Source: Anaeromyxobacter sp.
GTDB lineage: Bacteria > Myxococcota > Myxococcia > Myxococcales > Anaeromyxobacteraceae
Length of the DNA: 64,000 nt
Direction of reading: 5' to 3'
Assembly: GCA_049840735.1 (NCBI GenBank)
Contig: JASGJN010000026.1
Coordinates: 384,001-448,000 of the forward strand
Of this stretch, positions 17,776 to 48,140 are shown piece after piece (positions within the stretch are counted from its first letter, which is position 1; every line of letters starts with the position of its first letter). Below the pieces are notes generated by a model, which had not been told where the DNA came from, made no database searches, and saw only the letters and a list, made by a program, of their open reading frames with translations. The translations under genes were made by a program, and so were the position numbers.

Positions 17776-22478
<4,703 letters not shown>

Positions 22479-22492
<14 letters not shown>

Positions 22493-26679: not shown

Positions 26680-26709
26680 GGCGGCCGGAGGCGTCGGCCC
26701 CTCCCGCGC

Positions 26710-28599
26710 TCAGCGCGGTCCCCGCTCCGCGGCCAGCGGCGCGTCGCGCGCCAGCCGGTGGCGCGCCTGGAGCTCCTGCACCAGCGCGCCGAAGCGGGCG
26801 TCGTCGTGCAGCGCCGTCAGCGCCTGGCCCGCGTCGGCGGGCAGGAGCCAGGGCACGCCCTCGTCCACCGCCTGGCGCAGCGCCGCGAAGGCGCGGTCGC
26901 GCTCGCCCAGGGCGGCGTGCACGGCCGCCACGTCCAGCGGGCTGCTGGCCCGGCCGGGCGGCGGGTGCTCCACCTCGAACAGCAGCTCGCGCGCCGGCCC
27001 GGGCGCGCCGGTCTGGGCGCGCAGCCCGGCCAGGGTGGCGACGTAGGCGGGGCCGCGATCGGAGAGCCGGACCGCCTCGGCCAGCGCCGCCAGCGCCTCC
27101 GCACCGTGGCCGGCCGCCAGGTGCGCCCGCCCCAGCACGTCGTAGGCGGCCGGCAGGTGCGGGGCCAGCCGGAGCGTGGCCAGCGCCTGCTCGATGGCCG
27201 CCTCCGCCTGCCCGGCGTGGTGATAGGCCGCCGCCAGCGCCACGTTGGCGGCCGGGGCCATGGGATCGAGGTCGCGCGCCATCCGCGCCTCCGCCACCGC
27301 CTCGGCGTGCCGGTCCTGCAAGGTCAGGATCGCGGCCAGCCGCCGGTGGCCCACCTCCAGCGACGGCTCGATGGCGATGGCCCGGCGCAGGCTGGCCTCG
27401 GCCTGCGCGAAGTCCCAGCGCGCCGCCGCCACGGCGCCGAGCGCCGCGTGAGCCTCGGCCAGGCCGGGATCGAGCGCGCCGGCGCGCCGGGCGGAGGCCT
27501 CCGCCAGCTCCACCGACTGGCCCGCCGGCAGGACCCGCGCCTCGGCCGCCAGGAGGTAGGCCTCGGCCAGCCCGGCGCGGGCGCGGGCGTCCTCCGGATC
27601 GAGCCGCACCGCCTCGCCCAGGTGCTCCAGGCACTCGCCCAGCACCTGCGGCGTGGCGCGGCGGCAGTAGGCCCGCCCCACCTCCTCCTCGCGCTGGGCT
27701 GCGGCGTGGGCGCCCAGCGGGGGGCGGGGCTCCGGGGCGGACAGCGCCGCCACCTGCTCGCTCACCGTCCGCGCCACGCGCTCCTCCAGCTCGGGCAGCG
27801 CCACCGGGTCGGCCTCCAGCACGTCGGCCCAGCGCAGCCGCTCGCCCGAGGCGTCGATCAGCTCGGCCACGACCCGCACGCGGTCATCGACGCTGAGGAG
27901 CGAGAGCTCGACGAACGCCGCCGCGGCCGGCCGGCCCGCCGCCGCGGGCACGTGGTCGGGGGCGGCCGTGACCTCGATCCCGGGCAGGGTGGCCAGGTGC
28001 CGGGAGAGCGTCTGGGCCAGCTTGGTGCAGAGCGCGCCGTACCTGGGCTGGCCGGTGAAGTTCGACACCGGCAGCACCGCCACCCGCTGCGGGGCCGGCG
28101 CGTGGCGCGCCACGGCGTAGGCGGCGATCCCCAGCGCGGCGGCGAGGCCCAGCGCCGCGGCCGCCCGGCGCAGCGGTCGTGGCGACCGGGCCGGGGGTCC
28201 TGGCTCGGGCGGCGCCGGGGCGGGCGGCGGCGGCGGCGCGGGAGGGGTCGGGACTGGGGTGGGCGCCGGGCGCGCGGCGCGGGCCACCGGCGCCAGGAAG
28301 CGGTAGCCGCAGCGCGGGACGGTCTCGATGTAGGTCGGCGCGCGCGCGTCGTCCCCCAGCGCCCGGCGCAGCGCCGCCACGTGCTGGGAGAGGTTGCACT
28401 CCTCCACCCGGACCGAGCCCCAGACGCGCTCGAAGAGCCGCTCCTTGCGGAGCAGCCCGCCGGCCTGCTCCAGCAGGACCAGCAGGACGTCCACGTCCTT
28501 CGGCTTGAGATCGACCGCCGCCGCGCCCCGCCGGAGCACGCGCTCCGCGGGATCGATCACGAAGGGCCCGAACGAGAACAGGAGCTCCTGCTCTTCCAA
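26710..28599 (-). CDS. Membrane-anchored regulator: OmpR/PhoB-type winged helix + TM + TolB-like + TPR repeats (CadC/ToxR-like)
   Basis: FSFGPFVID...LSQHVAALRRALGDDARAPTYIETVPRCGYRF, Pro linker, TM helix, RVAVLPVSN, TPRs; TTG at 28599 preceded by GGGGAGG. Confidence 0.85.
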   Translation of the reverse strand: MEEQELLFSFGPFVIDPAERVLRRGAAAVDLKPKDVDVLLVLLEQAGGLLRKERLFERVWGSVRVEECNLSQHVAALRRALGDDARAPTYIETVPRCGYRFLAPVARAARPAPTPVPTPPAPPPPPAPAPPEPGPPARSPRPLRRAAAALGLAAALGIAAYAVARHAPAPQRVAVLPVSNFTGQPRYGALCTKLAQTLSRHLATLPGIEVTAAPDHVPAAAGRPAAAAFVELSLLSVDDRVRVVAELIDASGERLRWADVLEADPVALPELEERVARTVSEQVAALSAPEPRPPLGAHAAAQREEEVGRAYCRRATPQVLGECLEHLGEAVRLDPEDARARAGLAEAYLLAAEARVLPAGQSVELAEASARRAGALDPGLAEAHAALGAVAAARWDFAQAEASLRRAIAIEPSLEVGHRRLAAILTLQDRHAEAVAEARMARDLDPMAPAANVALAAAYHHAGQAEAAIEQALATLRLAPHLPAAYDVLGRAHLAAGHGAEALAALAEAVRLSDRGPAYVATLAGLRAQTGAPGPARELLFEVEHPPPGRASSPLDVAAVHAALGERDRAFAALRQAVDEGVPWLLPADAGQALTALHDDARFGALVQELQARHRLARDAPLAAERGPR

Positions 28600-28773
28600 G
28601 CGCGCCTCCCCAGCTGCTGCTTCGAGTGGACACAGGTGCACCACCGCTCCCGCCCCGCGCGAGTCCCACGTCCCCGGTGCCCGTCCAGGGTTCACGCTTC
28701 GTGAGGTGACTCCCGGGGCCACCGCCGACGGAGGTCGTCGCGCGCGAGGCCAGGGCCCGCGCGAGCAGCGACT

Positions 28774-28806
28774 CGTGAATTCACGCTGATTTCAGCGGGG
28801 CTTCAC
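28774..28806. promoter_or_regulatory. Three TTCA(C/G) direct repeats at 11-bp spacing plus overlapping palindromes
   Basis: TTCAC 28780, TTCAG 28791, TTCAC 28802; CGTGAATTCACG (28774-28785) and CGCTGA-TT-TCAGCG (28784-28797). Confidence 0.5.
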
Positions 28807-28901
28807 GGCGGGGGCGGGCGGGGCTGCCCATGCTCGCCTCCGACTCGAGGCCCGTCGGGGACGCCTGGAGGCGTTCACCGGACGGAAAGGCGGACCCAGC
28901 C

Positions 28902-31900
28902 ATGGACAGGCGAACGATCGTTGGCACCCATCGGGCTCTTCACTCCCAGCGATGGCTCACCGCGTGGCTGCTGGCGGTGGTGGCCGGGATCCCGGCGCTG
29001 GCCGGGGCCGCCCCGGTCTCGCTCGACGTGTCCAGCGCGCGCAGCGAGCCGCGCTGGGGCGACGGCGTCGGCATCCTGGAGGGGACGCCCATCGGCGCCT
29101 ACCGCTACCTGATCAACGTGGACGACACCGCCGACGGCTCCCAGCCGGCGGTGGACGGCTGCACGCCGGAGACGCCCGGCTACCCGGCCACCTGCCGCTG
29201 GCCCTCGGTGGCGGCCATCTCCTCCTCCAGCCCCATCTACACGCAGGGTGACCAGTCCGACTTCGCCAGCTTCCTGGACCTGCCGCCAGGCCGGTACCTG
29301 ATCTCGGTCCTGGCCGACGGCTTCAAGCTGGACGGCGCGCACTTCACGGTGCCGGACGCCGGCGCCGTGGTGGTGGAGGTGCGCCTGCAGCCGCACCCGC
29401 TGCCCACCGCCACGCTGCAGGCGCTGGTGTTCGAGGACACCGCCCCCGTCAACGGCGCGCCGGACGTCCCCGCGGAGCGCGGCCTGGCCGGCTTCCAGGG
29501 GCACATCGCCGACTACATCGACTTCGTCCTCACCGACATCTTCGGCAACCCGCTCTGCACCGAGTACGACCCGGCCACCGGCGAGCCCATCCCGGGCAGC
29601 GGCGGCGTCTGCCTCTCGCGCTGCTACGACGCCGACGGCCTCGACGTCACCGCCCAGGCCGACGCCGAGGGGCGCTGCCCGGTGGGCGCGCAGGGCATCC
29701 TCAGGATCCCCAACCTCGGCCCGAACCGCTACGCGCTCTCGGTGGTGCCGCCCGACGGCACCCCCTGGGTCCAGACCACCACCCTGGAGGGCAACCTGGA
29801 CTGGGACAGCTGGGTGATGGAGGGCAACACCGGCTACGACACCGAGTTCGTGCAGGCCGCCGAGCCGGTGCCCACGCCCATCTTCGGCTACGTGCGCCCC
29901 CTGAACACGCTGGCCGGCGGCGCCGGGCACGTGACGGGCGTGGTCGAGTCGGTCAAGAACTGGATCCCGCCGCGCGGCGGCGCGGCGCTGCCCGGGACGA
30001 TCTGGGGCGGCCTGGCCAGCTCCAAGCTCGATCGCCCATCGACCGGCCCTGGGTCGCGCTCTCCGACCTGAACGCCGGGGACGCGGCGGTGTACGTGGGG
30101 CAGGGCGGCGCCGACGGGCGGTTCGACATCGGCGGCGTGCCGGACGGCACCTACACGCTGACGTACTGGGACTCGGACCTCGACCACATCCTCGACCTGT
30201 TCAACGTGACCGTGGACGGCGGCGAGGTGGTGGACCTGGGCATCGTCCCGCTCTCCGGCTGGTGGACGCGCATCGAGGGCGACGTCTTCAACGACCTGAA
30301 CCGCAACGGCAAGCGCGACGCGGGGGAGCCGGGCATCGCCGGGTTCCCGGTGGTGGTGAAGAAGCGCGAGAACGCCGTGATGGACCGCGGCGCCACGCTG
30401 GTCACCACCGACGCGGCCGGCCACTACGTCCTCTCGAACGCCTACCCGCTCACGCAGTGGGTGGTGATCGAGGCCTACTCCGACCTGTTCTACACCACCG
30501 GCGTCACCTGGCAGGCCGACAACCAGCTGGAGGAGACCACGGTGCTGGGCGCCGGCGTGGACGTCGGCATGCTGCCCATCATCGGCCTGGGCGGGCGGCT
30601 GGACTGGGCGGTCCACGCCTACGATCCCACCGGGGCGACCGGCGGCCTCGATCCGCGCAACGGCGGCATCGTCGGGACCGTCTCCTACGACACCACCCGC
30701 AACGAGCTGGACCCCGCCTACGCGGCGGTGGAGGACTGGCAGCCGGGCATCCCCGGCCTGACGGTGAACCTGTGGGCCACCGTCCCCTGCGCGGCCGGGG
30801 CCATCTGCGACTCGACCCGGCGCTACCAGCTGGAGTCGGACGGCTCCTACCGCAAGGGGCAGCTGCTCAACCAGTACCAGACCGAGCGCTGGGCGCGCCC
30901 CCGCGGCTGCCAGCCGCGCGACGGCGACGGGGCGCCGCTGGCCTACCCGGCGGACCAGCAGTTCATGCCCGCGGCCAGCCCGGACGTGGAGTGCATCGAG
31001 GCGCCCGCCATGGGCGTCCAGTTCGAGCAGGGCTTCTCGGCGGTGGACGGCAACTACGGCTTCACCGACGGCTGCTTCGGCGCCGGCGGCTTCGACCCGG
31101 TGGCCGGTGCGTGCGCCGACGGCGCCGATCCCGTCGAGCTCTCGCCGCGCGACTACCTGGTGGAGGTGCTGGTGCCGGAGGACGCGCGCGGCCTGCCGCT
31201 CTACCAGGTCACGCGCGAGGAGGACATCAACATCGCCCGCGGCGACCAGTGGGTCCCGCAGGTGCCCCCGCCGCCGTGCGCCGGGCCGCTCCACACCGTG
31301 GACCTGGCCGGCGACGGCGTGGACGGCTACCCCGCCGTCGCGCTGGCCAGCGGCGTCCAGGTGCCGGCCTCGACCCCCACCGGGAACCCGACCTTCCTCG
31401 ACATCGGCGGGTCGCCCTACGAGGGCCAGGCCCGGCCGCTGTGCAACATGAAGCTGGTGCGGGTGAGCAACGGCCGCTCCATCGCGCCGACCTTCAACTA
31501 CTTCACCGACGTCCCGGTGGCGGGCCGCCTCTTCACGTACATCGTGGACGACCTGACCTTCTCTGCCAACCCGGCCTCCACGCTCTACGGCGAGAAGGCC
31601 GGCGTGCCCCACGTGCCGGTGGGCATCTACGACTACACCAACCGGCTGGTCACCACCGCCGAGTCCGACGTCAACGGCATGTTCGACGTGCTGCTGCCGT
31701 CGTCCGATCGCATCAGCTGCCCGACGCCCTCCGGCGTCTGCGCGAACCTGTACCGGCTGGTGGGGAACGACCCGGGGATCCCGGGGCGGCTCAACCCCGC
31801 CTACAACCCGCGCTTCCGCACCATCGCGGCGGAGTTCGAGGTCTTCCCCGGCCTGACCGTCCCGGCCGACCTGGCGCCGACGCAGGTGGGCGTCACGGTG

Positions 31901-34616
31901 CAGCTGCCCGGCGGGCAGACCGAGGCGGTCAGCTGCGCCCTCTCCGCCAGCACGCCCCAGCTCTTCCAGATCTCGGCGCCCTACGTGCGCGACAGCGGCG
32001 CCGCCACCAGCACCCTCGTCCTCCGCGGCCTGGGCTTCGGCGCCACGCAGGGCACCGGCGCGGTGACGCTGGACGGGGCGCAGGCGCTGACGGTCACCGC
32101 CTGGACCGACACGCAGATCACCGTCCGCATCCCCCCCGGCGCCGTCGCGCCCGGCCCCCACCAGCTGGCGGTCTCGGCGGCCAACGGGCTGCGCACGGTC
32201 AACGGCCTCACGCTGCACGTGCTGCGCAGCCCCTACCTGCCCACCGTCCGCGAGGTGGGCCCGGGCCGGACCTACGCCACCATCCAGGCCGCGCTGGACG
32301 CGGCGGCGGCCGGGAACGGCCCGCAGCTGGTGGTGGTCTACCCCGGGAACCCGGACCCGGCCAACCCGCGCCTCAACCCGCGCGGCGCCTACTTCGAGAA
32401 CCTGATCATCTCGCGCCCGGTGAAGCTCCAGGGCGTGGGCCCCGGCGGCTTCCAGGGCACCACCTACGTGCCCGGCTCGATCGTGGACGGCGGCGCCTTC
32501 GGCGGCGACGGCGCGCTGGCCGACGCCTGGCGCGCCCGCGTGGACGCGCTCACCTGGAGCGGCAACCAGACCGTGTTCGAGGGGGCCACCATCACCGTCC
32601 TGGCCACCGCCGGGCAGTTCGGCCAGGCCTACCCGGCCACCATCGACGGCCTGGACGTCCGCGGCGGCGATCAAGATGGGCTTCCCCGGCAACATCAACC
32701 AGATTGGCGGGACCCCCACCGGCCTCCCCGCCAACGCCATCACGCAGGGCGGCGGCATCTTCGTCAACGGCTACGCCCCCTACCTGCGCATCACCAACGA
32801 CGTGCTGGAGGCCAACGGCGGCGCCTACGGCGGCGCCATCCGGCTGGGCACGCCCAACCTGCCGGCGCCCCTCACCTCCAACCGGAACGAGCTCGTGAGG
32901 ATCCTCAACAACCGGATTGTCGCGAACGGCGGCACCAACCTGGCCGGCGGCGTGGGCATCTTCGCCGGCGCGGACGGGTTCGAGCTGGCGCACAACGACA
33001 TCTGCGGCAACTCCTCGGCCGAGTACGGCGGCGGCCTGACCGTCTACGGCTACAGCCCCGGCGGCCGCATCCACCACAACCGGATTTGGTTCAACAGCTC
33101 CTACGACGAGGGCGGCGGCGTGATGCTGGCCGGCGAGCTCCCGGCCGACCCGGGCACGCTCTCCCCCGGCACCGGCGCGCTGGAGGTGTCGGCCAACCTC
33201 ATCCAGTCCAACCTGGCCAACGACGACGGCGGCGGCCTGCGCCTGCTCATGGTGGGCAACTACCCGGTGGACGTCTTCAACAACGTGATCGTCAACAACG
33301 TCTCCACCCACGAGGGCGGCGGCGTGGCGCTCGACGACGCGCCGGCGGTCCGGTTCTTCAACAACACGGTGATGAAGAACCTCACCACCGCCACCGCCGT
33401 CACCAGCAACGGCTCCCCCGCGCCGGCGGGCCTCTCCACCGCGGCCAACAGCGACGCGCTCCAGGCGGTGCTGCCGCCCGGCGCGCCCACCTTCTCGAGC
33501 CCGCTGCTGTTCAACAACGTGTTCTGGGACAACCGGGCCGGCGCCCGCTCCGGGGCCACCGTGCTGGGCATCGGCCTGCCCGGCGACGCCAGCCCCGTCC
33601 ACCCCTGGGACCTGGGCGCCGGCGACGGCAGCGGCCTGCTCACGCCCACCGCCTCGGTGCTGCAGACCGCCGAGGGCACGGTGCCGGACGCCAGCAACAC
33701 GCTCGCCGATCCGCTGGTGATGCAGCCCTACGACACCTCGGTCGCGCTGGCGCCCTGGCGCACCAACCCCAACTTCATCGGCGCGGTGATGGTGGTCACG
33801 CCGCTGCCGCCCAACCTGATGGGCGACTACCACCTGACCCAGGCCTCGCCGGCGGTGAACACCGGCGTGCCCTCCCGGGCGGGCATCGCCGCCCCCGCGC
33901 TCGACTTCGACCTCCAGCTCCGGCCGGCGGGCGGCGCCTTCGACCGCGGCGCCGACGAGCAAGGCGCGGTGGCGCCGGGCGGCGGTGGCGGCGGCGGCGG
34001 CCCGGGCGCCGCCTTCCCCTCCACGCCCATCCTCGACGCGTTCACCCGCGCCAACACCAGCTCCGGCCTGGGCGCGAGCTGGACCGGCAACGGCGGCGCC
34101 TTCCAGATCTTCTCCAACCAGGTCCGGACCACCTTCGGCGTGGGCGGGGCGCTGCGCTGGAGCCCGGCCGTCTTCGGGCCCAGCCAGGAGGCGTACTTCA
34201 CCTTCACGCGCGTCTCGGTCGTCGGCTACGAGCAGGCGCTCCTGCTCAAGCTGAACGGGACCTCGCCGACCTCCACCAACGCCTCCGGCATCGAGGTCCG
34301 CTACAACGCGCTCACCGCCACCGCCAGCGTCCTGACGCGGGTGCCGGGCGCGGGCTGGGTCCAGCGCGCGAGCTTCCCGGTCACCTTCGCCGCCGGCCAG
34401 CAGCTGGGCGCGCGCGCCCTGCCGGACGGGACGGTCACCGTCTTCCGCAACGGCTCGGCCGTGGGCACCACCAACGTCACCGCCGGCGTCAACCCCTGGC
34501 CGGCGGTGTACGCGAGCGGCGGCGGCCGGATCGGGTTCGCGTTCGGCGGCGCCTTCTTCCCCCTGCTCGGCACCGACGCCCGCATCGACACCTTCGGCGG
34601 CGGGACCATGCCGTGA
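28902..34616 (+). CDS. Giant secreted protein (~1900 aa): SdrD-B/carboxypeptidase-regulatory-like and IPT/TIG domains, right-handed beta-helix, C-terminal lectin-like domain (frameshifts ~30037, ~32673)
   Basis: Joins ORFs 28830-30071, 30089- and 32676-34616. Signal peptide; IEGDVFNDLNRNGKRDAGEPGI; LRGLGFGATQG..WTDTQI; YATIQAALDAA; GGG/N-ladder repeats; DYHLTQASPAVNTG..FDRGADE. Confidence 0.8.
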
Positions 34617-34636
34617 CCCGCGCCAGGAGACCCGTC

Positions 34637-35951
34637 ATGACCCAGCCCACCGATCCCAAGCGCATCACCCGCCGCCACCTGCTCCGGGGCGCCGGAGGGG
34701 GGCTCGCGCTCCTCGCCGGCGGCGGTCTCCTGCCGCGGCCGCTCTCGCGCCTGCTCCTGCCGTCCAGCGTCGGGGTGGCCGGCGCGGCGGACGACCCGCC
34801 GCACGACCTGTTCTTCGCCGGCACCGACGGCTGGATTTGGCTGCCCGAGGCGCCGGCCCTCCGGCCCTTCCACCCGGACGTGCTCGCGCCGCCGCCGTTC
34901 ACCACCTACGTGTTCGGCTTCCGCAACGTCACCGGCCTCACCGCCACCGAGCGGGCCGCGCAGAAGTTCAAGGCGCAGCACTCGGCCCCGCTCTGGTGGG
35001 TGGACCAGTACGACGGCGCGCGCGAGTTCCGGGTGGCGCTCGACCAACCTGGGGCTGGGCATGCGGCCCGACCTCACCGACGCCCACACGCTGCACTGGC
35101 ACGGCTTCCGGAACGTGCTGCCGTTCTTCGACGGGGAGCCCACCGGCTCCTTCGGCGTGCCGGCGGGGCGGATCTTCGTCTACGCGTTCCGGCCGCGCGA
35201 TCCCGGCACGTACATGTACCACTGCCACGTGGAGGACACCGAGCACGTCCACATGGGCATGACCGGGATCGTCTTCGTGCGCCCGGCCATAGGCCCCGGG
35301 TTCGCCTACAACGACCCCGCCACCGCCTTCGACCGGGAGTACGCCATGTTCCTGTCGGAGGTCTGGGCCGAGGCGCACTGGTGCGACGCCCACATCCAGC
35401 TGCCGGACTGGACCGACTACCGGCCCGACTTCTCGCTGCTCAACGGCCGCGTCTGGCCGGACACGCTGCTCCCCAGCGGCTCCATCGACCCGTTCCACCC
35501 GGTGCGCGCGGCCGGCGGTGATCTGCTCCCGCCCGGCGGCGAGGAGCGGCTGCGCTACCAGCCGTACTCGTCGCTGGTCACCTGCAACGCCGGCGAGCGC
35601 GTGCTGCTCCGCTTCGCCAACCTGGGGTTCCGCGAGGCGGCCATGCGCTGCGCCCTGCGCCTGCGCGTGGTGGGCAAGGACGCCACGCCCATGCGCGGGC
35701 GCGACGGCACCGACACCAGCTACGAGGCCCAGACGCTCTCCTTCGGCGCCGGGGAGTCGATCGACGCGATCTTCACCGCCCCGCCCCACGGCGGCGGCGC
35801 CGGCCCGGACGTCTACGTGCTGGAGGACCGCGACCTGAGGCGCTCGGGGAACCTGGCGCAGGGCGGCTTCGGCGGGCGCCGCACCGAGATCCGCGTCCAC
35901 CCGCCGGGCACGCTGCCGCCGCAGCGCTACCCGCACGACGCCTGGCTGTGA
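34637..35951 (+). CDS. Tat-exported two-domain multicopper oxidase-like protein A (T1 site and domain-1 His ligands; frameshift ~35041)
   Basis: KRITRRHLL twin-arginine signal; HTLHWHG; YMYHCHVEDTEHVHMGM; domain 2 lacks His pairs. Confidence 0.85.
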
Positions 35952-35962
35952 GGAGACCGACC

Positions 35963-37221
35963 ATGACCGCCCTCCGGATCCCGGCCCTCGCCGCCCTCCT
36001 CCTGGCCGCGCCGCTCGCCGTCGCCGCCGACCCGGCCGTCGGCCTGGCCGGCTGCCCCGCGTCCCCGCCCGCCAACCCCACCTACGTCCTCACCGCCACC
36101 GACGGCTACATCCAGCTGCCGGACGGCAACACCATGTACATGTGGGGCTACGCGCCGGCCGGGGGCGGCTTCCAGCACCCCGGCCCGGTGCTCTGCGCCA
36201 GCGCCGGCGACACGGTGACGGTGGTGCTGCGCAACGACCTCGCCCAGGCCGTGTCGGTGGTCTTCCCCGGGCAGGAGGGCGTGACCGCCGACGGCGCCCC
36301 GGTGCAGCCGCAGTTCACGGACGGTGCGCTCACCTCGCTGGCCCAGGCGGCGCCGCCCGGCGGCGGGACCGTCACCTACCGCTTCGTGGCCGGCCGCCCC
36401 GGGACCTTCGCGTACCACAGCGGCACCGACCCGGCCACGCAGGTGCGGATGGGGCTGTTCGGCGCGCTGGTGGTGCGGCCGGCCGGCGTCCCGCTCCAGG
36501 CCAGCGGCCGGGCCGACAGCGCCTTCACGGAGGGGGAAGAGTTCCTGGTGCTCCTCTCCGGAGATCGACCCGCTGCAGCACCAGGCCCTGGAGAGCGGGC
36601 TCCCCTACGACGCCAGCGCCTACCAGGCGCGCTACTGGCTGCTCAACGGGCGCGGCTTCCCCGACACCGTGGCCGACAACTTCGCGCCCTGGCTGCCCAC
36701 GCAGCCCTACGGCGCGCTGGCCCGGGTCCACCCCCTCGATCCGGTCGCCCACCCGCGCCCCGGCCTCATCCGCTACCTGAACCTGGGCGCGGAGAACTAC
36801 CCGTACCACCCGCACGGCAACAACGGCCTGGTGATCGCGCGCGACGGCTTCCCGCTCGGAGGGGCCGGGCGGCGAGGACCTCTCCATGGAGAAGTTCTCG
36901 GTGAACGTGGCGCCCGGCCAGACCTGGGACGTCCTCTTCAGCTGGCACGACGCCGAGGCCTACTCCGAGGCCAACCCGGTGCCGGTGACCGTGCCCAGCT
37001 ACGCCAACCTGCAGCTGGGCATGTTCTACGGCGGCTCGCCGTACCTGGGCCTGACCGGCCCGCTGGGGCCGGGCAAGTCCACGCTCAACCAGTGCGGCGA
37101 GCTCTACGTCATCTCGCACAACCACGCCCTCGACCGGCTCACCGGCTGGGGCGGCGTGACCATGGTCGGGCCCATCACCTACCTGCGGGTGGACCCCCCG
37201 CTGCCGAACACCTGCCCGTAG
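35963..37221 (+). CDS. Two-domain multicopper oxidase-like protein B (domain-2 His ligands only; frameshifts ~36561, ~36858)
   Basis: Sec signal; YMWGY..PGPVLCASAGDTVTVVLRN; GTFAYHSG..QVRMGL (no Cys); YPYHPHG; ISHNHA. Confidence 0.82.
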
Positions 37222-37236
37222 CGCCCGGAGACGGCC

Positions 37237-40158
37237 ATGACGCGAACCCTCCCGCGATCGCTCCCGACCTGTCTATTCCTGCTGGCCCTCGCTCCGGCGG
37301 CGGGGCGGGCCGACCCGCTCCCGCTGCAGGCCTGCGCCGAGCCGGTGGCCGGGCAGCCCACCTGCGCCCTCCACGCCGGCGCCGGCACCCTGGCGCTGCC
37401 GGACGGCTCGACCGTGCCGGTGTGGGGCTACGCCGCCGCGGAGGGCGGCGCCGTGACCTCGCCCGGCCCCGTCTACGTGGTGCGCCAGGGCGACCAGGTG
37501 ACCCTCACCCTCCACAACGACCTGGGGGTGGCCACCTCGCTCCGCCTCTCCGGCCTGTCCGGCGCCCCCGAGCTGCCGGCGGTGGCGCCCGGCGGCAGCG
37601 CGGACCTCTCCTTCGTGGCCGCGGCGCCGGGCACCTACCGCTACGAGGCCGGCGCCTCGCCGGGCACGCAGTACCAGGTGGCCATGGGGCTGCACGGCGT
37701 GCTGGTGGTGCGCCCGGCTGCGGACGGCACCGCCTACGGCGATCCCGCCAGCGCCTTCGACGACGAGGCGGTGGTGGTGCTCTCCGAGCTCGACCCGGCC
37801 CTGCAGGCCGCGGCGGAGCCGGCCGCCTTCGACCTGCGCAGGCTGGCGCCGACCTGGGGCCTGGTGAACGGCCGGCCCTACGCCGGCGCCGCCGCCTCCG
37901 ACCTGGTGGTGCCGGTCTCCGCGGGGCCGCGCCGGCTGCTCCTGCGCTACGCCAACGCCGGCAGCGCGCCGCGCGCCATGGCGCTGCTGGGCCTGCCGCA
38001 GGCGCTGCTGGCGGTGGACGCCGCGCGGCTGCCCTGGGCGCAGCGCGGGGTCTCGCAGGCGCTGGGCGCCGGCCAGACCGCCGACGCCGTGGTGGTGGTG
38101 CCGGGTGGCCTGGCGGAGGGGTCGCGCTACGCGCTCTACGACGCGAGCCTCTCGCTCCACAACCCCGGCCAGGCCGGGCTGGGCGGCATGATGACGTTCC
38201 TGCGGGTGGGCGCGCCCGGCGCGGGCGGCGGCGAGCTGCGCCCGACCACCGGCGGCGTGGCCGTCGCGCCGGCCGCCACCGCCGGCCTGTCGGTGACCGT
38301 CAGCGCCACCGTCTCGAGCCCCGGCGGCGACGTGCTGGCGGCCGAGGCCTTCCTGGACGCGCCCGGCGCGGACGGCGCCGGCGCCGCGCTGGCGGTCACC
38401 GCCGCGCCCTCCGTCACCGCCAGCGGCGCGCTGGACGTGGGCGCCGCCGCCTCGGGGGTCCACGCCGTCCACGTGCACGGGCGGAACGCGGCGGGCTGGG
38501 GGCCGTTCGCGGTCGGCACCGTGCGCATCGACCGGGCCGGCCCGCTCACCAGCGCGGTGGCGGCCAACCCCGCCGCCACGCGGGGCGCCGCCGCGGTGGT
38601 GGTCTCGGCCACCGGCGACGATCGCGCCACCGGCGGCTCGGCGGTGGTGGCGGCCGAGCTGACCATCGCCGACCCGGGCAACCCGGCGCCGCTGGCCATG
38701 GCCGCGGGGCAGGCGGGCGACGTGACCGGCTCACCGTGACGCTGCCGCCCGCGCTGCTGGCCTCCCTGGCCTCAGGCCCGCACCTGCTCTCGAATCCGCT
38801 CCCGCGACGCCCTCGGCAACTGGGGCGCGCCGGCGCTGGCCACCGCGCTGGTGGTGGACCGCGCCGGGCCGTCGGCGGTGGCCAGCGTGGCCCCGCCGGC
38901 CACCAACGGCACGCAGGGTGTTCTCCTCCGGCGTGGCCGCGCTGCGCCTCTCCGTCACCGCCACCGACGCCCTCTCGCGCGTCGCCGGCGCGGAGGGGTT
39001 CATCGACGCCGCCGGGGCCGAGGGCAGCGGCTTCCCGCTGCTGGCCGGCGACGGCAGGTTCGACGGCCTCACCGAGGCGCTCACCGCCGACGTGCCGCTC
39101 GCCACGGTGGTGCAGCTCCCCCAGGGCACGCACGCGCTGCTGGTCCGGGCGCGCGACGCCGCCGGCAACTGGGGGACGCCGGGCCTCCGTCTCCTTCCTC
39201 TACGAGAAGGGCCGGCCCACGGTGTCCGGCCTGGCCCTCGCGCCCAGCCCCACCGGCGGCGCGGCCAGCGTCACGGTGACGGCCACCGCCACCGAATCCG
39301 GCCCCGGCCTCCGGCGTCGCGGCCGCCGAGTGGTTCGAGGGGACCGACCCCGGCGCCGGGCGCGGCGTGGCCATGGCCGCCGCCGACGGCGCCTTCGACG
39401 GCGCCACCGAGGCGCTCACCGGCACCATCCCGGTGGCCGCCCGCGGCTGGAGCGCCGGCACGCGCACCATCTCGGTCCGCGCCCGCGACCGGGCCGGCAC
39501 CTGGAGCGCCCCGGTGGCCGCCACGCTGACCATCACCGTCCCCGGGCAGCTCTTCGCCGACGGCTTCGAGGCCGGGAACCTCTCGGCCTGGAACGGCGGG
39601 GCCACCGGCGCCGGCCTGGCGGTCGCCGCGCCGGCCAGGCTGGGCCCCACCGGCACCTACGGCCTGGCCCTCGCGGTGGGCAACACCCCGGCCTTCGTCA
39701 CCGACACCACGCCCACCGCCGAGCCGTCCTACCGGGCCCGGTTCTGGTTCCACCCGAACGGCACCGGCACCGGCGGCAACGCCTGGGATCTGTTCCAGGG
39801 CGCGAGCGGCGCGCAGGTGCCGCTGCGGGTCCAGTACCGGCGGCAGGGCGCGGCCACCTACCAGGTGCGCGCGCAGCTGCTGGCGGCAGGCGGCGCGGCC
39901 GTGGCCACGCCGTGGGTGACCATCAGCAACGCGCCCCACGCCGTGGAGGTGGCCTGGACCGCCGGCACGGGCGCCGGCCCCCGGCTGCAGCTGTTCCTGG
40001 ACGGGGCCCTGGCGCAGACGCTCTCCGGCCAGAACACCGGCGCCTACCGGATCGACACCGCCCGGCTCGGGCGCGTCGCCGGCCCGACGGGGGGCGCCGG
40101 CGGCACGCTCTACCTGGACCAGTTCGTCTCCTCGCGCGGCGCGGCCATCGGGCCATGA
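37237..40158 (+). CDS. Ligand-less multicopper oxidase-like protein C with C-terminal Ig-like repeats (~970 aa; five apparent frameshifts 38730-39295)
   Basis: VPVWGY..PGPVYVVRQGDQVTLTLHN, GTYRYEAG..QVAMGLHG, LVNGR, LLRYANAG. Then repeats of AAEAFLD..G..VRARDAAGNWG and a LFADGFEAG terminal domain. Confidence 0.75.
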
Positions 40159-40583
40159 GCGCGCGCCGGGACAGCCAGGGCGGGGCGGCGGGGCGGGCCG
40201 CGCTCGCGCTCGTGCTCGCCGCGGCCGGGCCGGCCGCGGCGGGCGGCGAGGGGCCGACGCTGCCGCCGGCCGCGCTCGAGGCCGGGCACGGCCTCCGGGT
40301 GGCGCGGGTGGCGCTGGTGGCGGCGGGCGGGATGGTCGACCTGCAGCTGCGGGTGCTCGACGCCGCCCGGGCCCGGGCGCTGCTGGGCCGCCACGCGCCG
40401 CTCCAGCTGGTGGTGGACCCGGGCGGCGCGGTCCTGGCGGCGCCCGGCCACGCGTCGCCGTGCAGCGCGGCCGCGGCCGGCTGCGCGGTCCTCTTCCCCA
40501 ACGCCGGCGGCGCCGTGCACCGCGGCGGCACCGTCACCTTGCTGGTGGGCGACCTGCGGGTCGGGCCCATCGTGGTCCAGTAG
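40155..40583 (+). CDS. Small exported hypothetical protein
   Basis: ATGA overlap with the upstream stop; signal-like N-terminus; RVALVAAGGMVDLQLRVLD...LFPNAGGAVHRGGTVTL. Confidence 0.65.
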   Translation: MSARRDSQGGAAGRAALALVLAAAGPAAAGGEGPTLPPAALEAGHGLRVARVALVAAGGMVDLQLRVLDAARARALLGRHAPLQLVVDPGGAVLAAPGHASPCSAAAAGCAVLFPNAGGAVHRGGTVTLLVGDLRVGPIVVQ

Positions 40584-40596
40584 GCCGGAGGACGCC

Positions 40597-42469
40597 ATGG
40601 CCCCTGCAGCGCTGCTGGTCGCACTCGATCGTCAACGCGCCGCCGGCGCTCGCGCCGGAGCTGGAGCAGGGGCTGCGGGCGCTGCCGGCGGGGGGCACGC
40701 TCGCGGTGGTGGTGCGGCTGGCGGGAGGGACCGGCCCCGCGCCGGGCGCGCTGCGGCCCGGGCCGCTGGCCGGCGCGCTGCGCGCCCGCGCGGCCGCGGC
40801 CGGCCGGGCGCTGGAGCCGGCGCTGCAGGGCTGGCGGGCGCGGGGCCTGGTGGCCCGCTGGACGCCGCTCTGGATCGTGAACGGCTACTCGGTCACCGGC
40901 ACGCCCGAGGTGATCCGGGCGCTGGCCGCGCGGCCCGACGTGGCCGCGGTCTCGCCCGACGCGCTCGACCTCTCGCCCCAGGGCGCGCCGGCCGAGCCCA
41001 ACGTGGCGGCGGTGGGCGCCCCGGCGCTCTGGGCGGCCGGCTTCACCGGCCAGGGCGTGACGGTGGCCATCCTCGACACCGGCGTGGACGTGAGCCACCC
41101 CGACCTGGCGGCGCGGTGGCGCGGCGGCCCCGGCGGCTGGCTCGACCCCTACGGCCAGCACGCGTCGGCCCATGACGCCAGCGGCCACGGCACCTGGACC
41201 GCCGGCGTGCTGGTGGGCGGCGAGGCGGGCGGCACCGCGCTGGGCGTGGCCCCCGGCGCCCGCTTCATCGCCGCCAAGGTCTTCCCGGACGCCGGCCCGG
41301 CCACCGCCACCGCCGTCCACGCCGCCTTCCAGTGGGTGCTGGACCCGGACGGCGACCCGGCCACCGAGGACGCGCCGCGGGTGGTGAACGGCTCGTGGTC
41401 CTTCGGCGCGCCCGGCTGCAACCTGGAGTTCCTGGAGGACCTGCGCGCGCTGCGGGCCGCCGGCATCCTCCCGGTCTTCGCCGCCGGCAACTACGGGCCC
41501 GGCGACGCCACAAGCACCTCCCCGGGCAACTACCCCGAGGCCCTGGCGGTCGGCGCGCTGGACGGCGGCGGCCGCCCCCTCGACCTCAGCAGCCGCGGCC
41601 CCTCCGCCTGCGGCGGCGGCCCGTTCCCGGCGCTGGCCGCGCCCGGGCTCGACGTCTGGACCACCGACCTCATGGCCTGGTACCTGCCGGCCAGCGGCAC
41701 CTCGATCGCGGCGCCGCACGTGAGCGGCGTGGCGGCGTTGCTGGCCTCCGCGGTCCCGGGCGCCTCCGCCGACCAGCTGGCGGCGGCGCTGCAGGCGGGC
41801 GCGCTGGACCTGGGCGCGCCGGGGCCGGACCCGGCCACCGGCCGCGGGCAGGTGGACGCGGCGGGCGCGCTCCAGGCCCTGCTGGCCCCGCCCGCGCCCC
41901 AGCCCCCGGTCGCCTCCGCCGACGCGTACACGCTCGACGCCGGCACCTCGGCCACCTTCACCGCGCCGGGCGTGCTGGCCAACGACGCCTCGCCCAGCGG
42001 CGCGCCGCTCTCGGCCGAGCTGGCGGCGCCGCCCGCCCACGGGCAGCTGGCGCTGCGCGCCGACGGCGGCTTCGACTACACGCCCGACGCCGGGTTCTCC
42101 GGGGCGGACGGGTTCGGCTACCGCCCGCGCGCCGCAGGGCTGGCCGGCGCCGTGGCGGCCGTGGCGCTGACGGTGCGCCCGCCCAACCAGGCCCCGGTGG
42201 CGCGCGCCGACGCGGCCCGCACCGCCCCCTCCACGCCGGTGGCGGTGCCGGTGCTGGACAACGACGCCGATCCCGACGGGGCGCTGGCGCCGGCCACGCT
42301 CGCGGGGGTCGCGCGGCCGCAGCACGGGCGCGTGTCCTACGCCGGCGGGCGCGCCACCTACACCCCGAGCTTCGGCTTCCGCGGCCGTGACACGTTCACC
42401 TACCGCGTGCAGGACGACCGCGGCGCCTGGTCCAACGCGGCCCGGGTGACCGTGGACATCAAGAGGTGA
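40597..42469 (+). CDS. S8 subtilisin-like serine peptidase with two C-terminal Ig-like (Big_9/cadherin-like) domains (frameshift ~40628)
   Basis: Triad ILDTGVD, GHGTWTAG, SGTSIAAPHV; FAAGN; GVLAND..DGGFDYTP; NQAPVARAD..VLDNDADPDG; SD GGAGGA before ATG 40597. Confidence 0.9.
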
Positions 42470-42473
42470 CCTG

Positions 42474-43310
42474 ATGCGCTGCCTGGCCCGCCCCGCTCCC
42501 TCCCTCGCCGCCCTCGCGCTCGGCGCCGGAGCCCTCCTGGCCGGCTGCGGCGGCGACGCGCCCCCCGGCGCCGCGCCGCGCCCGTCGCGCGCGCCGCTCC
42601 AGCCGGAGCAGGCGCTGCGGGTCGAGGTGGCGCTGGGGGCGGGGCCCGACCGCCACCCGCTGCCGGACGTGGAGGTCAGCTTCATCCCCGAGGCGCTCAT
42701 GGTGGCTCACCTGGAGCGGCGGCAGGCGGAGGTGGCGGGGCGGCTGGAGCGGCTCCGGGCGGAGACGGAGCGGCTCCACGGCGCGCTGGCGCGGCAGCAG
42801 GCGGTCAACGAGCAGGCCAGCCAGGCCTATGCCCGCCAGTCGGGCGACTACCTGCGCGACCGGACCGCGCTCAACCTGTCCCGCGGGCACTCCGCCTCCG
42901 ACGTGACGGCCGCGCGCGCCTCCCTGTCGCGCGATCGCCGCACCGCCCGGCTCACCGCCGAGGCGGTGGCGCGCGACACGCTGGCGGCGGAGCGGCGGCT
43001 GCACGCGGTCCGGGCCGAGCTGGAGCGGGTCCAGACCGAGACGCTGCTGGCCGGCCTGCCGCAGCCCATGAAGCTGGCGCGGACCGGGCCGGACGGCCGG
43101 GCGGAGCTCACGCTGCCGCCGGGCCGCTACGCGGCGGTGGGGCTGGCTCCGGCCGGCGCCGGCGCGCCGGCGGGGCCGTGGCTGGGATGGGTCGAGGTGC
43201 AGGCGCGCCCCGGCCTGCTGGTGCTGGACGACGCCAGCGCGAGGGCGCTGGAGCCGGGCCTGGCGCGCCAGGCCGCGGGTGAGGCTTCCACCGGAGGAGT
43301 GCAACCATGA
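42474..43310 (+). CDS. Lipoprotein, hypothetical, with coiled-coil insertion
   Basis: Lipobox LLAGC; helical heptad-rich middle; ARTGPDGRAELTLPPGRY (prealbumin-like fold motif). Confidence 0.65.
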   Translation: MRCLARPAPSLAALALGAGALLAGCGGDAPPGAAPRPSRAPLQPEQALRVEVALGAGPDRHPLPDVEVSFIPEALMVAHLERRQAEVAGRLERLRAETERLHGALARQQAVNEQASQAYARQSGDYLRDRTALNLSRGHSASDVTAARASLSRDRRTARLTAEAVARDTLAAERRLHAVRAELERVQTETLLAGLPQPMKLARTGPDGRAELTLPPGRYAAVGLAPAGAGAPAGPWLGWVEVQARPGLLVLDDASARALEPGLARQAAGEASTGGVQP

Positions 43311-43918
43311 TCGCGATCCGTCCTGCCCTGCTGACCGCGCTGGCGCTGGCCGCCGGCGCCACCGCCGCCGAGGCCCCATGCCCGTGCCACGCCGGCAAGC
43401 CGGCGGCGGCGCCCGCGCGCGCGGCCGTCACCCGCACCGCGCACGCCTACGCGCCGCCGGACGTGACCCTAATCGACCAGGACGGCCGCCCGGTGGCGGT
43501 GGCCGAGGCCCTGGCGCAGGGCGGACCGCTGGTGGTCAACTTCATCTTCACCACCTGCACCACCATCTGCCCGGTCATGAGCGCCTCCTTCGCCGGCCTG
43601 CAGCGCCAGCTGGGCGCGGCGGGGGAGGGGCTGCGGATGGTGTCGATCACCATCGACCCCGCCCACGACCGGCCCGCCGAGCTCGAGGCCTACGCGCGCC
43701 GGCACGGGGCCGGGCCGGGCTGGACGTTCCTCACCGGCCGCGAGGAGGACGTGCGGGCGGTGGCGAGCGCCTTCGACGCCTGGGTGGCGGACAAGGCCGA
43801 GCACCGGGCCTTCACGCTGCTCCGGCCCGCCGGGAGCGCCACCTGGGTCCGGGTGGAGGGGCTGGCCGGCGCGGCCGCGCTGGCCGAGGCGCTGCAGCCG
43901 CTCCAGGCCGGGCGGTGA
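43307..43918 (+). CDS. SCO1/SenC-family copper chaperone
   Basis: LIDQDGRPV, NFIFTTCTTICP (CxxxC), SITIDPAHD, WTFLTG, conserved His in AEHRA. Confidence 0.93.
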   Translation: MIAIRPALLTALALAAGATAAEAPCPCHAGKPAAAPARAAVTRTAHAYAPPDVTLIDQDGRPVAVAEALAQGGPLVVNFIFTTCTTICPVMSASFAGLQRQLGAAGEGLRMVSITIDPAHDRPAELEAYARRHGAGPGWTFLTGREEDVRAVASAFDAWVADKAEHRAFTLLRPAGSATWVRVEGLAGAAALAEALQPLQAGR

Positions 43919-45483
43919 CCGTGGGCGCGCTGGCGGCCCTGCTGGCGGCGGCGCTGGCCGCGGCGCCGGCCGGGGACGCCGCGGCCGGCGAGCGGCTCTA
44001 CCGCGACGGGCGGCTGGCGGGCGGGGCGCCGGTGCAGGCCGTGGTGCTCGACGGGCTGCCCATCAGCGGCGCGCAGGTGAGCTGCGCGGCCTGCCACGGG
44101 CGGAGCGGGATGGGCGCGGACGAGGGGGGGGTGGTCACGCCCTCCATCACCGCAGCGACCCTGGCCGCGCCGCGCGGCGGCGAGCGGCCGCGGCCGGCCT
44201 ACGACCGGGCCGCGCTGGCGCGGGCCATCCGCGAGGGCGTGGACGCCGCCGGCCGGCCGCTTGATCCGCTCATGCCGCGCTTCCGCCTGGAGGGGCGGGA
44301 GCTGGAGGCGCTGCTCGATCACCTGGGCGGCCTCTCGGCGCGCCCCTCGCCCGGCGCCGGCGAGGCGCTGCACCTGGCCACCGTGATCGCGCCCGACGCG
44401 CCGCCGGAGGTGAGGGACGCCACGCTCGCGGTGCTGCGCGCCTACGTGGCGGCCCACAACGCGGCCGCGCGCGTGGAGCGGCTGCACCACCGCCGCGTGC
44501 AGCGCCCCACGCTGGGGGACGAGGAGCCGGCCAGCGACTGGGTGCTCCACGAGTGGACGCTGCGCGGCGCGCCCTCGTCCTGGGGCGCGCAGCTCGCGGC
44601 CCAGCAGCGGGCGCAGCCTGCCTTCGCGGTGGTCAGCGGTGCGGGCGGGGCGCGCTGGGAGCCGGTGGACCGGTTCTGCGAGGCGCAGCGGCTCCCCTGC
44701 CTGTGGCCGAACCTGGTCACGCCGCCCGAGGCGGAGGGCTTCTACGCGCGCTACTTCTCGCGCGGCCTGCGGCTGGAGGCGGACACCGTGGCCGCCGACC
44801 TGGCGCGGCGCGGCGGCGGGCAGCGGGTGCTGCAGGTGCTGCGGCGCGGCGGGCCGGGGGCGGCCGGCGCGGCGGCGCTCTCGGCGGCGCTGCGGCGCCA
44901 GGGCGTGCCCGCGGAGGCGCTGGCGCTCGGGCCGGCGGAGGCGGTGGACGCCGGGCGCCTGGAGGCCGCCGCGCGACGGTCCGGCGCGACGGCGGTGATG
45001 CTCTGGCTGCGCCGCGAGGAGCTCGCCCTGCTGGCCGGCGCGCCGCAGCGGCTGGACCGGGTCTACGCCTCGTCGGCGCTGCTCGACGGCGACCTGTCCG
45101 CGGCCGCCGCGCTCCCCGCCCGCCGCGTGGCGGTGGCGCACGCGTGGGCGCTGCCGGAGGACGCCGCCGCGCGCGAGGCCGCCTCGGAGGGCTGGTTCCG
45201 GGCCGCCGGGCTGGGGCCCGCCGGCGGCGCTGCGCGGCGCGCGCGCGACCAGTCCTTCGCGGCCATGCGGCTGCTGGGGCAGGCGCTGATGCACCTGGAG
45301 GAGTCCGGCGCCTTCCAGCGGGACTTCCTGCTGGAGGTGCTCGATCACGGCGCCGGGCCCTGGGATGCCTCGGCGCAGCACCCGCGGCTCACGTTCGGCC
45401 CGGGCCAGCGGTACCTCTCGACGGGCTGCTACCTGGTGCCGGTCGGGGAGGAGGCCGGGGCGCCGGCGTGGATCGTGCCCTGA
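43915..45483 (+). CDS. Cytochrome c fused to periplasmic-binding-protein-like domain
   Basis: Signal peptide; GERLYRDG; CAACHG; LMPRF axial Met; FAVVSG..FCEAQRLPCLWP; RLTFGPGQRY. Confidence 0.8.
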   Translation: MTVGALAALLAAALAAAPAGDAAAGERLYRDGRLAGGAPVQAVVLDGLPISGAQVSCAACHGRSGMGADEGGVVTPSITAATLAAPRGGERPRPAYDRAALARAIREGVDAAGRPLDPLMPRFRLEGRELEALLDHLGGLSARPSPGAGEALHLATVIAPDAPPEVRDATLAVLRAYVAAHNAAARVERLHHRRVQRPTLGDEEPASDWVLHEWTLRGAPSSWGAQLAAQQRAQPAFAVVSGAGGARWEPVDRFCEAQRLPCLWPNLVTPPEAEGFYARYFSRGLRLEADTVAADLARRGGGQRVLQVLRRGGPGAAGAAALSAALRRQGVPAEALALGPAEAVDAGRLEAAARRSGATAVMLWLRREELALLAGAPQRLDRVYASSALLDGDLSAAAALPARRVAVAHAWALPEDAAAREAASEGWFRAAGLGPAGGAARRARDQSFAAMRLLGQALMHLEESGAFQRDFLLEVLDHGAGPWDASAQHPRLTFGPGQRYLSTGCYLVPVGEEAGAPAWIVP

Positions 45484-45887
45484 GGAGCGGTCGGGGGGCT
45501 GCGCCCGCCGCCCCGCCGCTGGCTCCGGTGGAGGCTCGGCCGGCTGGCCCGTACCCGAGGTGCGGGAGGTCCCGGGCCCATCGACCCTTGGCGGCACCCC
45601 ACGGATCGAGATCGTTAGCGCCGATCGCCCCGCGGATCCAGCCCCCTGGCGTCGATCTGCGCTGATCGACCAGGCCGGCGCCAGGCGGCTGACGGACGCC
45701 CCCGAAAAGCGAAGGCGTCGTGGGCAGGTGGGATCGATCGCGGCGGCGGCCGGGCTATGATGACCCAGCAATGTTGCCAGCCACGGCAACATCGGTGTCG
45801 GCCGCGGAACCGGCGGGGCTCATGAGCCGCCGGGACGCGGCCGATGCATTTTCAGCCCGTCCGCAGCAGCACCAAGGAGGCGGTTCC

Positions 45888-48026: not shown

Positions 48027-48140
48027 GGGCCGGCCTCCCGCGCGATCCCCGCTGACACCTGGGCCCGTTCTCCCACCTTCGCGCTTCCCCGGATCCTGGG
48101 ACCTGGCCGGCCCTCGATCCCGACGCGGCCTGGTGACACC

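Follow-up and report, generated by a model that had tools for sequence, protein, structure and literature searches.

Gene content of the locus

The window analysed here is a stretch of 64,000 nucleotides from an Anaeromyxobacter genome (assembly GCA_049840735.1, 6.67 Mb, 26 contigs, 94% complete; contig JASGJN010000026.1, positions 384,001 to 448,000, forward strand). Between rpoN, which ends at 26679, and hpf, which starts at 45888, it holds a cassette of nine plus-strand genes (28902-45483, intergenic gaps of -4 to +20 bp) with a divergent regulator gene on the minus strand (Table 1). Three of the nine encode two-domain cupredoxins, here called subunits A, B and C, and the ligands of a single trinuclear copper site are predicted to be divided between two of them. 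Genes were called from open reading frames (ORFs), codon-position GC and in-frame pieces, and frames were resolved by tblastn with the intact proteins of the orthologous cluster in genome G005; by the same search the cassette is single-copy in the source genome.

Pfam matches follow the order SdrD-B/TIG/beta-helix (gene 1), Cu-oxidase three times (A, B and C), none (gene 5), S8 with Ig/cadherin repeats (gene 6), none (gene 7), SCO1/SenC (gene 8), and cytochrome c (gene 9). Export signals of the cassette genes were read by eye, with no predictor: subunit A has a signal like those of the twin-arginine translocation (Tat) pathway, gene 7 a lipobox, and the others Sec-like signals. An earlier note on this DNA, made from the letters alone, had described packed co-directional genes, essentially all with Sec, Tat or lipoprotein signals, beside a divergent membrane regulator, and this description was confirmed. 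The cassette's own SCO copper chaperone and cytochrome (genes 8 and 9) were also found as described, and the protease and scaffold listed there are present as genes for an S8 protease and a scaffold-like giant protein, the proposed roles in maturation and surface assembly being putative. Its term "copper/heme redox module" overstates the heme, for which a single CxxCH motif was found. Two things had been missed: no oxidase gene is complete alone, and the cluster family is in print, as Slit_1812-1818.

Table 1 Features of the rpoN-hpf region in the window. Positions are those of the window.
Feature	Position	Strand	Evidence or remark
rpoN, left flank core gene	25174-26679	+	501-aa ORF; 85-94% identity to genus orthologues, full or near-full length
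Regulator, 629 aa from TTG 28599: winged helix, Pro-rich linker, one hydrophobic segment, TPR	26710-28599	-	Pfam, hydropathy
Triple direct repeat, TTCA core, 11-bp period, ~100 bp 5' of gene 1	28776-28805	+	Pattern search
Gene 1, ~1,900-aa exported protein: transthyretin-like/SdrD-B beta-sandwiches, IPT/TIG, right-handed beta-helix	28902-34616	+	Pfam, AlphaFold, fold matches
Subunit A, Tat-type two-domain cupredoxin	34637-35951	+	Ligand motifs 35085-35105, 35220-35261
Subunit B, two-domain cupredoxin, start 35948 or 35963	35948-37221	+	Ligand motifs 36807-36815, 37117-37125
Subunit C, ligand-less two-domain cupredoxin, then Ig-like repeats, C-terminal beta-domain	37237-40158	+	Pfam, ligand table
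Gene 5, 142-aa exported protein	40155-40583	+	Counterpart of Slit_1815 by size and position
Gene 6, S8 subtilase with Big_9/cadherin-like repeats	40597-42469	+	Peptidase_S8 6.5e-42; triad 41069-41710
Gene 7, lipoprotein, variable accessory	42474-43310	+	Lipobox; otherwise only in G005, G212, G263
Gene 8, SCO1/SenC copper chaperone	43307-43918	+	Pfam 2e-22; CxxxC 43556-43573
Gene 9, monoheme cytochrome c fused to periplasmic-binding-protein fold, MofC-like	43915-45483	+	CxxCH 44083-44097, conserved Met
Ancestral hpf promoter/leader, outside the insert	45730-45887	+	71-84% identity to rpoN-hpf spacer, 21/21 relatives compared
hpf, right flank core gene	45888-46446	+	1-base shift near 45924

Copper ligands of subunits A, B and C

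Ligands were tabulated for 77 A, 91 B and 70 C sequences from genome and metagenome loci; counts are given per site covered. The three subunits are paralogous (hhalign E 6e-47 and 1e-69, A/B and B/C profile pairs). The best PDB match of both A and B is 3G5W, a type-C two-domain multicopper oxidase (MCO), and the profiles of A and B match both of its domains, domain 2 weakly (independent E-values 0.21 and 0.036).

Domain 1 of A carries a complete type-1 site (His, Cys, His, Met) together with four trinuclear histidines, each in 62-65 of 63-66 sequences; apart from single alignment gaps, substitutions are confined to one degenerate orphan copy in G008. Domain 2 of A has no ligand set, with one vestigial His in 24 of 76. 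In B, four trinuclear histidines stand in domain 2 as two HxH pairs (89/91 and 87/87), and profile alignments place them on the domain-2 histidines of 3G5W; the middle residue of the last pair is Cys in 0/87. Domain 1 of B has lost its motifs: there is no His at the first, the Cys position is Ser or Ala and never Cys (90/90), one His is left in 9/90, and the type-1 set is absent. The window's subunit B has no Cys. Subunit C has neither a conserved ligand set nor a type-1 site, and retains a vestigial domain-2 His in 47 of 63. The window's own A, B and C genes follow the same split, no cassette gene has more than two of the four MCO copper motifs, and the eight trinuclear histidines that every chain of a type-C homotrimer holds occur together in none of A, B or C.

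Because each holds only four of the eight histidines, A alone or B alone has no means to supply a trinuclear site; domain 1 of A and domain 2 of B together are predicted to supply exactly one. Placed in a three-fold ring, the subunits would leave the remaining interfaces (B domain 1 with C domain 2, C domain 1 with A domain 2) free of copper, which agrees with the sequences. An A-B-C heterotrimer with a single active site is thus the likely arrangement.

Domain 2 of A also has a non-canonical His (His258 of the G005 orthologue, L051:11929-13269), found in 68 of 70 A sequences; at the equivalent position of B, His is again the residue seen most often. It possibly marks an extra metal or substrate site. 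Identity with the nitrite reductase NirK was considered and rejected, since in-frame pieces score 29.8-39.4 bits with TIGR02376 against a cut-off of 296, and eight, not three, non-type-1 histidines are conserved.

Comparison with described systems

By the comparisons given here the cassette belongs to the family of Slit_1812-1818 of Sideroxydans lithotrophicus ES-1, as a different subtype, so that the gene cluster as such was known already. Both have three tandem cupredoxins, a small exported protein, SCO1/SenC and a MofC-like cytochrome, and the sizes (296, 56, 55, 18 and 59 kDa) match. Published peptides of Slit_1817 and Slit_1818 are identical by eye to B of G013 and A of G021 (19 and 16 residues); through these A and B sequences of G021 and G013, which align with the window copy, the three cupredoxins are placed as orthologues of Slit_1818, Slit_1817 and Slit_1816. 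In Sideroxydans C and gene 1 are fused, whereas in the window gene 1 comes first and is separate from C; the window copy further has the S8 protease, the lipoprotein, and the regulator with its candidate operator. The subfamily to which it belongs is a distant one, A being 33-35% and B 37-38% identical to the Sideroxydans-type sequences of G013/G021.

According to passages of two papers (PMC5566968, PMC12016527), Slit_1817 and Slit_1818 show the motifs typical of MCOs; these passages do not mention a split. No account of it was found in the openly searchable literature, subscription papers lying mostly outside such a search; on the Slit_1812-1818 locus tags only Keffer et al. was found.

The split-ligand architecture appears to be a variant of the two-domain MCOs, which according to passages in two papers are trimers whose trinuclear cluster is shared by neighbouring chains, one giving its domain 1 and the next its domain 2 (PMC13151041, PMC11761707). 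As in the type-C enzymes (3G5W, 2ZWN; Nitrosopumilus Nmar_1354, 9CCK), the type-1 copper lies in domain 1 and the trinuclear histidines occupy the same positions; unlike those one-gene trimers, in which each chain has all ligands, the window proteins have them divided between two genes, and the third paralogue has none. The "heterotrimer" of 9CCK is, in the passage concerned, one protein with and without an extra domain (PMC11761707).

Ceruloplasmin is a weak PDB match of B (E 4e-9). Six-domain MCOs of the ceruloplasmin/MnxG type consist of three two-domain units in one ring with a single trinuclear site, a layout that A, B and C would share. Ceruloplasmin and the Bacillus MnxG-type oxidases are single chains, whereas the window encodes three chains with only one type-1 site, in domain 1.

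The cassette shares SCO1/SenC in the operon and a MofC-like fusion of cytochrome and binding protein with the Pseudomonas mnxG/mcoA, Leptothrix mofABC and Geobacter ompB loci. Passages of He 2017 (PMC5566968) give MofC-like proteins the cytochrome c plus periplasmic-binding architecture of gene 9, and let such cytochromes and SCO accompany the OmpB/MofA metal oxidoreductases. The proposed likeness of the oxidase itself to the MnxG/McoA/MofA Mn(II) loci had to be abandoned: those are single-chain oxidases, and passages of the same paper state that the three tandem MCOs of Slit_1812-1818 are not homologous to the MnxG/MofA type. MnxG and McoA have their copper-binding regions (five and four) in one chain, whereas the window oxidase is split over genes. 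Identity with MnxG, McoA or MofA was rejected, as no single chain holds all copper regions and gene 1 has none.

Gene 1 as partner protein

Gene 1 is 73-77% identical to its intact G005 orthologue. AlphaFold modelled the N-terminal 1,063 residues of the latter with a predicted local distance difference test score (pLDDT) of 83.8 and a predicted template modelling score of 0.79; they match transthyretin-like, SdrD-B and TIG domains, the fold matches to SdrD and pilins covering single beta-sandwich domains only. A beta-helix follows over the next 587 residues (pLDDT 85.8). Its resemblance is to glycan-active proteins at 10-14% identity, with lacto-N-biosidase LnbX, mannuronan epimerase AlgE4 and DFA-IIIase as best Foldseek matches (E 7e-6 to 1e-4; template modelling score by query 0.33-0.44; 10-13% identity).

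Fusions of gene 1 with A make up 52 of 54 long A matches, and fusions with C occur in four of ten genome loci (G021, G013, Cupriavidus, Paraburkholderia), gene 1 and C being separate genes in the window and in G005; a clean B-C fusion was found in 2 of 150 B representatives. Taken together, these fusions connect all four proteins, but A and B are never joined directly. Since gene 1 is joined to A or C in other bacteria, it is likely to act as the tether of the split oxidase. No conserved metal or heme motif was found in its 73 homologues, and a redox role of its own was rejected on the same alignment, in which 80% conservation is reached at only two His and at no Cys or Met.

Accessory genes, regulator and operator

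Gene 5 lies almost always directly 3' of C. Its Atlas matches are unnamed clusters, and the automatic Atlas label "copper(I)-binding" is unsupported, there being no conserved His, Cys or Met. The Asp/His/Ser triad of gene 6 is intact; within the stretches examined, the S8 protease gene is absent from the subtype with fused C and gene 1. Gene 7 has no Pfam or NCBIfam match. In gene 9 the cytochrome c assignment comes from Pfam and the periplasmic-binding fold from Atlas, and the only CxxCH is that of Table 1. Among the Atlas matches of gene 9 is a cluster of ~811-aa SCO-cytochrome c fusions, commonest in Acidobacteriota; this suggests that genes 8 and 9 act together.

The regulator matches Trans_reg_C (8e-16) and TPR in Pfam, has a hydropathy peak of 1.99 at residues 146-164, and is likely, from these features, a membrane-anchored one-component activator. 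Orthologues with 45-55% identity lie beside the cluster in G005, G008, G013 and G022, and weaker homologues occur in G016, in G047 and elsewhere in G013; the tally is a lower bound, the first-pass search having been stricter. The triple repeat upstream of gene 1 has one match in the window and none in 100 shuffles, and is unique in the genome. Across the genus the pattern occurs in 5 of 37 genomes, once each and always just upstream of a gene 1 (reversed-pattern control 0), and the same five hold a regulator orthologue of 45-55% identity beside the cluster. The pattern was built from four of these five genomes plus G171, so that G013 is the sole independent match. In six clusters without a regulator in the examined stretch the repeat is absent. 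Direct repeats spaced by 11 bp are typical of winged-helix operators, and the triple repeat is likely the operator of the regulator.

Proposed mechanism and substrate

We favour, though not strongly, the reading that the accessory operon after rpoN encodes a split type-C two-domain MCO, an A-B-C heterotrimer likely tethered by gene 1. The regulator would quite probably switch the operon on through the triple repeat. A, B and C would be exported and loaded with copper after export with the help of SCO; the trinuclear cluster would very probably form at the interface of A domain 1 and B domain 2; C would probably close the ring as a structural subunit; and gene 1 may be expected, with similar assurance, to hold the enzyme against a solid or polymeric surface. 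Electrons would pass from the substrate to the type-1 copper of A and on to O2 at the A/B cluster, giving water, and the enzyme by itself would conserve no energy unless electrons were diverted through gene 9. For the substrate our first choice, a tentative one held at somewhat less than even confidence, is a surface-bound reduced metal, Fe(II) or Mn(II).

Several points weigh against this reading, some touching the assembly and some the metal substrate. Neither the 54 long A matches (866-2,470 aa only) nor the 150 B matches include an A-B fusion; in the window the signal of A is Tat-like and those of B and C are of Sec type, which complicates co-assembly; and the contacts of A with B, of A with C, and of gene 1 are predicted ones. 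The extra acidic residues that the subfamily of the window copy has near the type-1 loop of A are missing in the Sideroxydans-type subfamily; the likeness of the gene-1 beta-helix to glycan-active proteins points to polymers; the cluster is often met with in heterotrophs (Paraburkholderia, Cupriavidus, Nocardioidaceae, Cellulomonas, Chloroflexota) that the source passages do not describe as iron oxidisers; and, in passages of Keffer 2025 (PMC12016527), Slit_1816 and Slit_1817 show no significant change early on fresh magnetite, so that induction may track growth phase or attachment. On the supporting side, other passages report that Slit_1812-1818 are more abundant late on magnetite (Keffer 2025, PMC12016527 / bioRxiv 2024.09.20.614158) and that the family proteins rise by 3.5-7.7 log2 late on fresh magnetite and are produced together; the company that a MofC-like cytochrome and SCO keep with OmpB/MofA metal oxidoreductases (He 2017, PMC5566968) also counts in favour. 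Paraburkholderia, Ralstonia and Anaeromyxobacter are named among carriers of the cluster (Keffer 2025, PMC12016527).

The lack of an A-B fusion among those matches would also suit an arrangement with no heterotrimer, in which A works alone as a blue type-1 electron carrier, B has a different mode of copper binding, and C and gene 1 serve only as surface scaffolds in an electron-transfer chain from mineral to cytochrome without O2 reduction. Such a chain would let a lithotroph keep its electrons, and passages of Keffer 2025 (PMC12016527) frame the Slit_1812-1818 proteins as possible extracellular electron-transfer components. Against it, exactly eight trinuclear histidines, four on A and four on B, are kept in nearly all homologues; because an electron carrier has no use for them, we regard this arrangement as very unlikely.

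With the split oxidase retained, a second question is what it oxidises. The same enzyme could be an organic or polymer oxidase, with the beta-helix of gene 1 binding a polysaccharide or humic/lignin surface and phenolics being cross-linked or degraded by the oxidase, for instance within a biofilm matrix or in soil organic matter. The matches to LnbX, AlgE4 and DFA-IIIase and the broad spread in soil heterotrophs speak for this, passages of PMC13151041 report phenolic oxidation by two-domain MCOs, and the late, solid-associated expression in Sideroxydans, as far as the passages of Keffer 2025 go, fits attachment. The fold matches, however, are generic to beta-helices, with no function shown; the Sideroxydans proteins were made in magnetite cultures; and the MofC-like cytochrome is tied, in the passages of He 2017, to metal oxidoreductase loci. 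A polymer substrate is on this evidence rather unlikely, and reduced metal remains our choice.

Distribution of the cassette

The cassette is widespread but patchy, and it is conserved as a unit in other genomes; the search across taxa called for by the earlier note thus found the genes co-occurring elsewhere. Subunit B occurs in 10 of 37 genomes of the genus, in 19 of 301 of the phylum (including 10 of 44 in the same family, against 2 of 141 in a second family of this order), and in 10 of 301 genomes from the phylum to which a Chloroflexia genome belongs. Of 8,000 protein clusters scored in a search with subunit A, 4,544 reached E<=1e-30, and plasmid-database matches comprise 12 records of 1.7-2.6 Mb from Paraburkholderia, Ralstonia and Cupriavidus replicons. 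Among 80 metagenome loci chosen for the presence of B, 66 have A next to it and 60 have C; loci without A or C have less than 0.6 kb upstream or less than 1.4 kb downstream of B. The core order is gene 1-A-B-C-gene 5, and protease, SCO, cytochrome, lipoprotein and regulator vary among loci.

A quick tree built from 47 B sequences places the window sequence as sister to that of G005 (SH-like approximate likelihood ratio test 99), within a clade that includes a Chloroflexia sequence, and far from the G021/G013/Cupriavidus/Paraburkholderia subtype; the seven genus copies require at least four changes on starred branches. Tree and patchy spread would fit repeated gain or loss. Two B genes each are present in G008 (C18, C27), G013 (C20, C34) and G171 (C1, C4), and the two clusters of G013 differ in subtype, which suggests distinct roles.

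The same spread was weighed for a protective function of the split enzyme, with O2 scavenging, or oxidation of Cu(I)/Fe(II) in the envelope, by microaerophiles and facultative anaerobes at oxic-anoxic boundaries and with gene 9 feeding in electrons from the cell. The ligand set for O2 reduction is complete, the cluster is enriched in its own family relative to the other family counted above, and long homologues are named from Thermodesulfobacteriota and Deferrisomatales. A 1,900-aa adhesin-like fused partner would, on the other hand, be needless for detoxification; the cassette genes include no copper efflux, CopC/D or CueR-type gene; and gene 9 and SCO were undetected in many loci with long flanks. 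We consider protection improbable.

Two side observations concern related clusters. At the end of the G008 cluster (L056:999-2573) lies a fourth, degenerate A paralogue, divergent from the regulator, in which all copper ligands are lost. The gene 3' of the G005 cluster (L051:634-2148) encodes a putative lipoprotein of 504 aa that combines an acidic tract and five Cys-rich repeats with a CxxCH motif at its C terminus.

Insertion between rpoN and hpf

Synteny was compared in 27 of the 36 other genus genomes, in two of which the contig ends within rpoN. In all 25 with downstream sequence rpoN and hpf are contiguous at a spacing of ~210-350 bp, as the earlier note had expected, and the pair is intact in all nine other genus members with subunit B, so that their B copies sit elsewhere. 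From this comparison the cassette is read as an accessory operon inserted 3' of rpoN, again as had been proposed; neither of the two genomic outcomes named in the earlier note as refuting (presence at this site in all close relatives, lack of co-occurrence elsewhere) came about. The ~19-kb insert drawn at 26680-45887 was too long on the right: the hpf leader matches the relatives' spacer at 45730-45887, in one relative from 45695, and because of this match the insert is placed within 26680-45694 at most, hpf retaining its own leader.

Among genomic-island traits, absence at the same site in relatives and patchiness in the genus were found; integrase, attachment (att) repeats, tRNA and deviating composition were not. 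A family scan of the window genes gave no integrase, the 20 largest repeat families listed contain no flanking direct or att-like repeat (both in line with the earlier note), no tRNA was found, and there is no low-GC signal (GC 0.72-0.82 inside the cassette, 0.67-0.79 outside). No relative was found in viral contigs, and searches for a sigma-70 promoter or intrinsic terminator gave no match.

The hpf leader contains two hairpins (45771-45853), conserved in 18 genus sequences with a consensus of -28 kcal/mol, mostly invariant pairs, one compensatory change and several G-U shifts; a regulatory RNA element shared across the genus is one possibility, a palindrome bound by protein another. The Rfam scan gave no family match, for these hairpins or otherwise. 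After ptsN, at 47145-48866, a protein with a sugar-type periplasmic-binding fold and a GDSL lipoprotein are encoded; neither has a match among the neighbourhood ORFs of G021, G020 and G009, which marks a second variable spot beside the same operon.

Frameshifts in the window copy

Compared with the intact G005 copy, 1-base indels interrupt gene 1 (near 30040 and 32674), A (near 35045), B (near 36563 and 36861) and C (at least three between 38730 and 39530), and the frame of gene 6 changes just past the start codon. No in-frame stops were found in the stretches aligned to G005. Some 50% of the real breaks coincide with GATC/GAATC words or directly adjoin them, a pattern that we take to resemble long-read errors at methylated motifs. 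Since the flanking kdsA, kdsB, hpf and an ABC permease gene are shifted as well, assembly error is the likely cause. The apparent kdsB-pyrG fusion and the split kdsA in the window (19079-21667 and 21673-22492) are likewise artefacts of assembly from 1-base indels, which could mislead other readings of this genome.

A different explanation is that this copy is decaying into pseudogenes, whatever the family does elsewhere. The density of indels, about 11 in the 16.6 kb of the cassette compared with 2-6 per 8-18 kb of aligned flank, favours decay and counts against a functional oxidase in this strain. Yet only 1-base indels occur, and the aligned stretches are free of in-frame stops; no ligand has been lost, and the protease triad, CxxxC, CxxCH and the likely operator have all stayed intact; and kdsA, kdsB and hpf are shifted too. 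The probability of decay is accordingly put as small.

Significance

The rpoN-hpf insertion is a strain-level event of modest interest. Annotation pipelines and two papers treat the genes as separate oxidases; on the split-ligand reading, expression of single genes would likely yield inactive protein, and A, B and C with SCO are indicated as the set to be co-expressed. This would make directly testable a family that spans thousands of protein clusters and whose Sideroxydans members are induced while magnetite is being oxidised, and the regulator-operator pair would offer a reporter for finding the inducing signal.

For the family as a whole we lean narrowly towards an obligately heterotrimeric, ceruloplasmin-like ring of separate genes with one type-1 site, one trinuclear site and one copper-free subunit, carried on a 200-kDa adhesin and oxidising solid minerals or polymers at the cell surface in several phyla. 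If true, an O2-reducing site built from two gene products would extend the two-, three- and six-domain MCO architectures; the family would be a living model for the origin of six-domain MCOs, and might represent a class of solid-phase Fe/Mn oxidase that has so far gone unrecognised.

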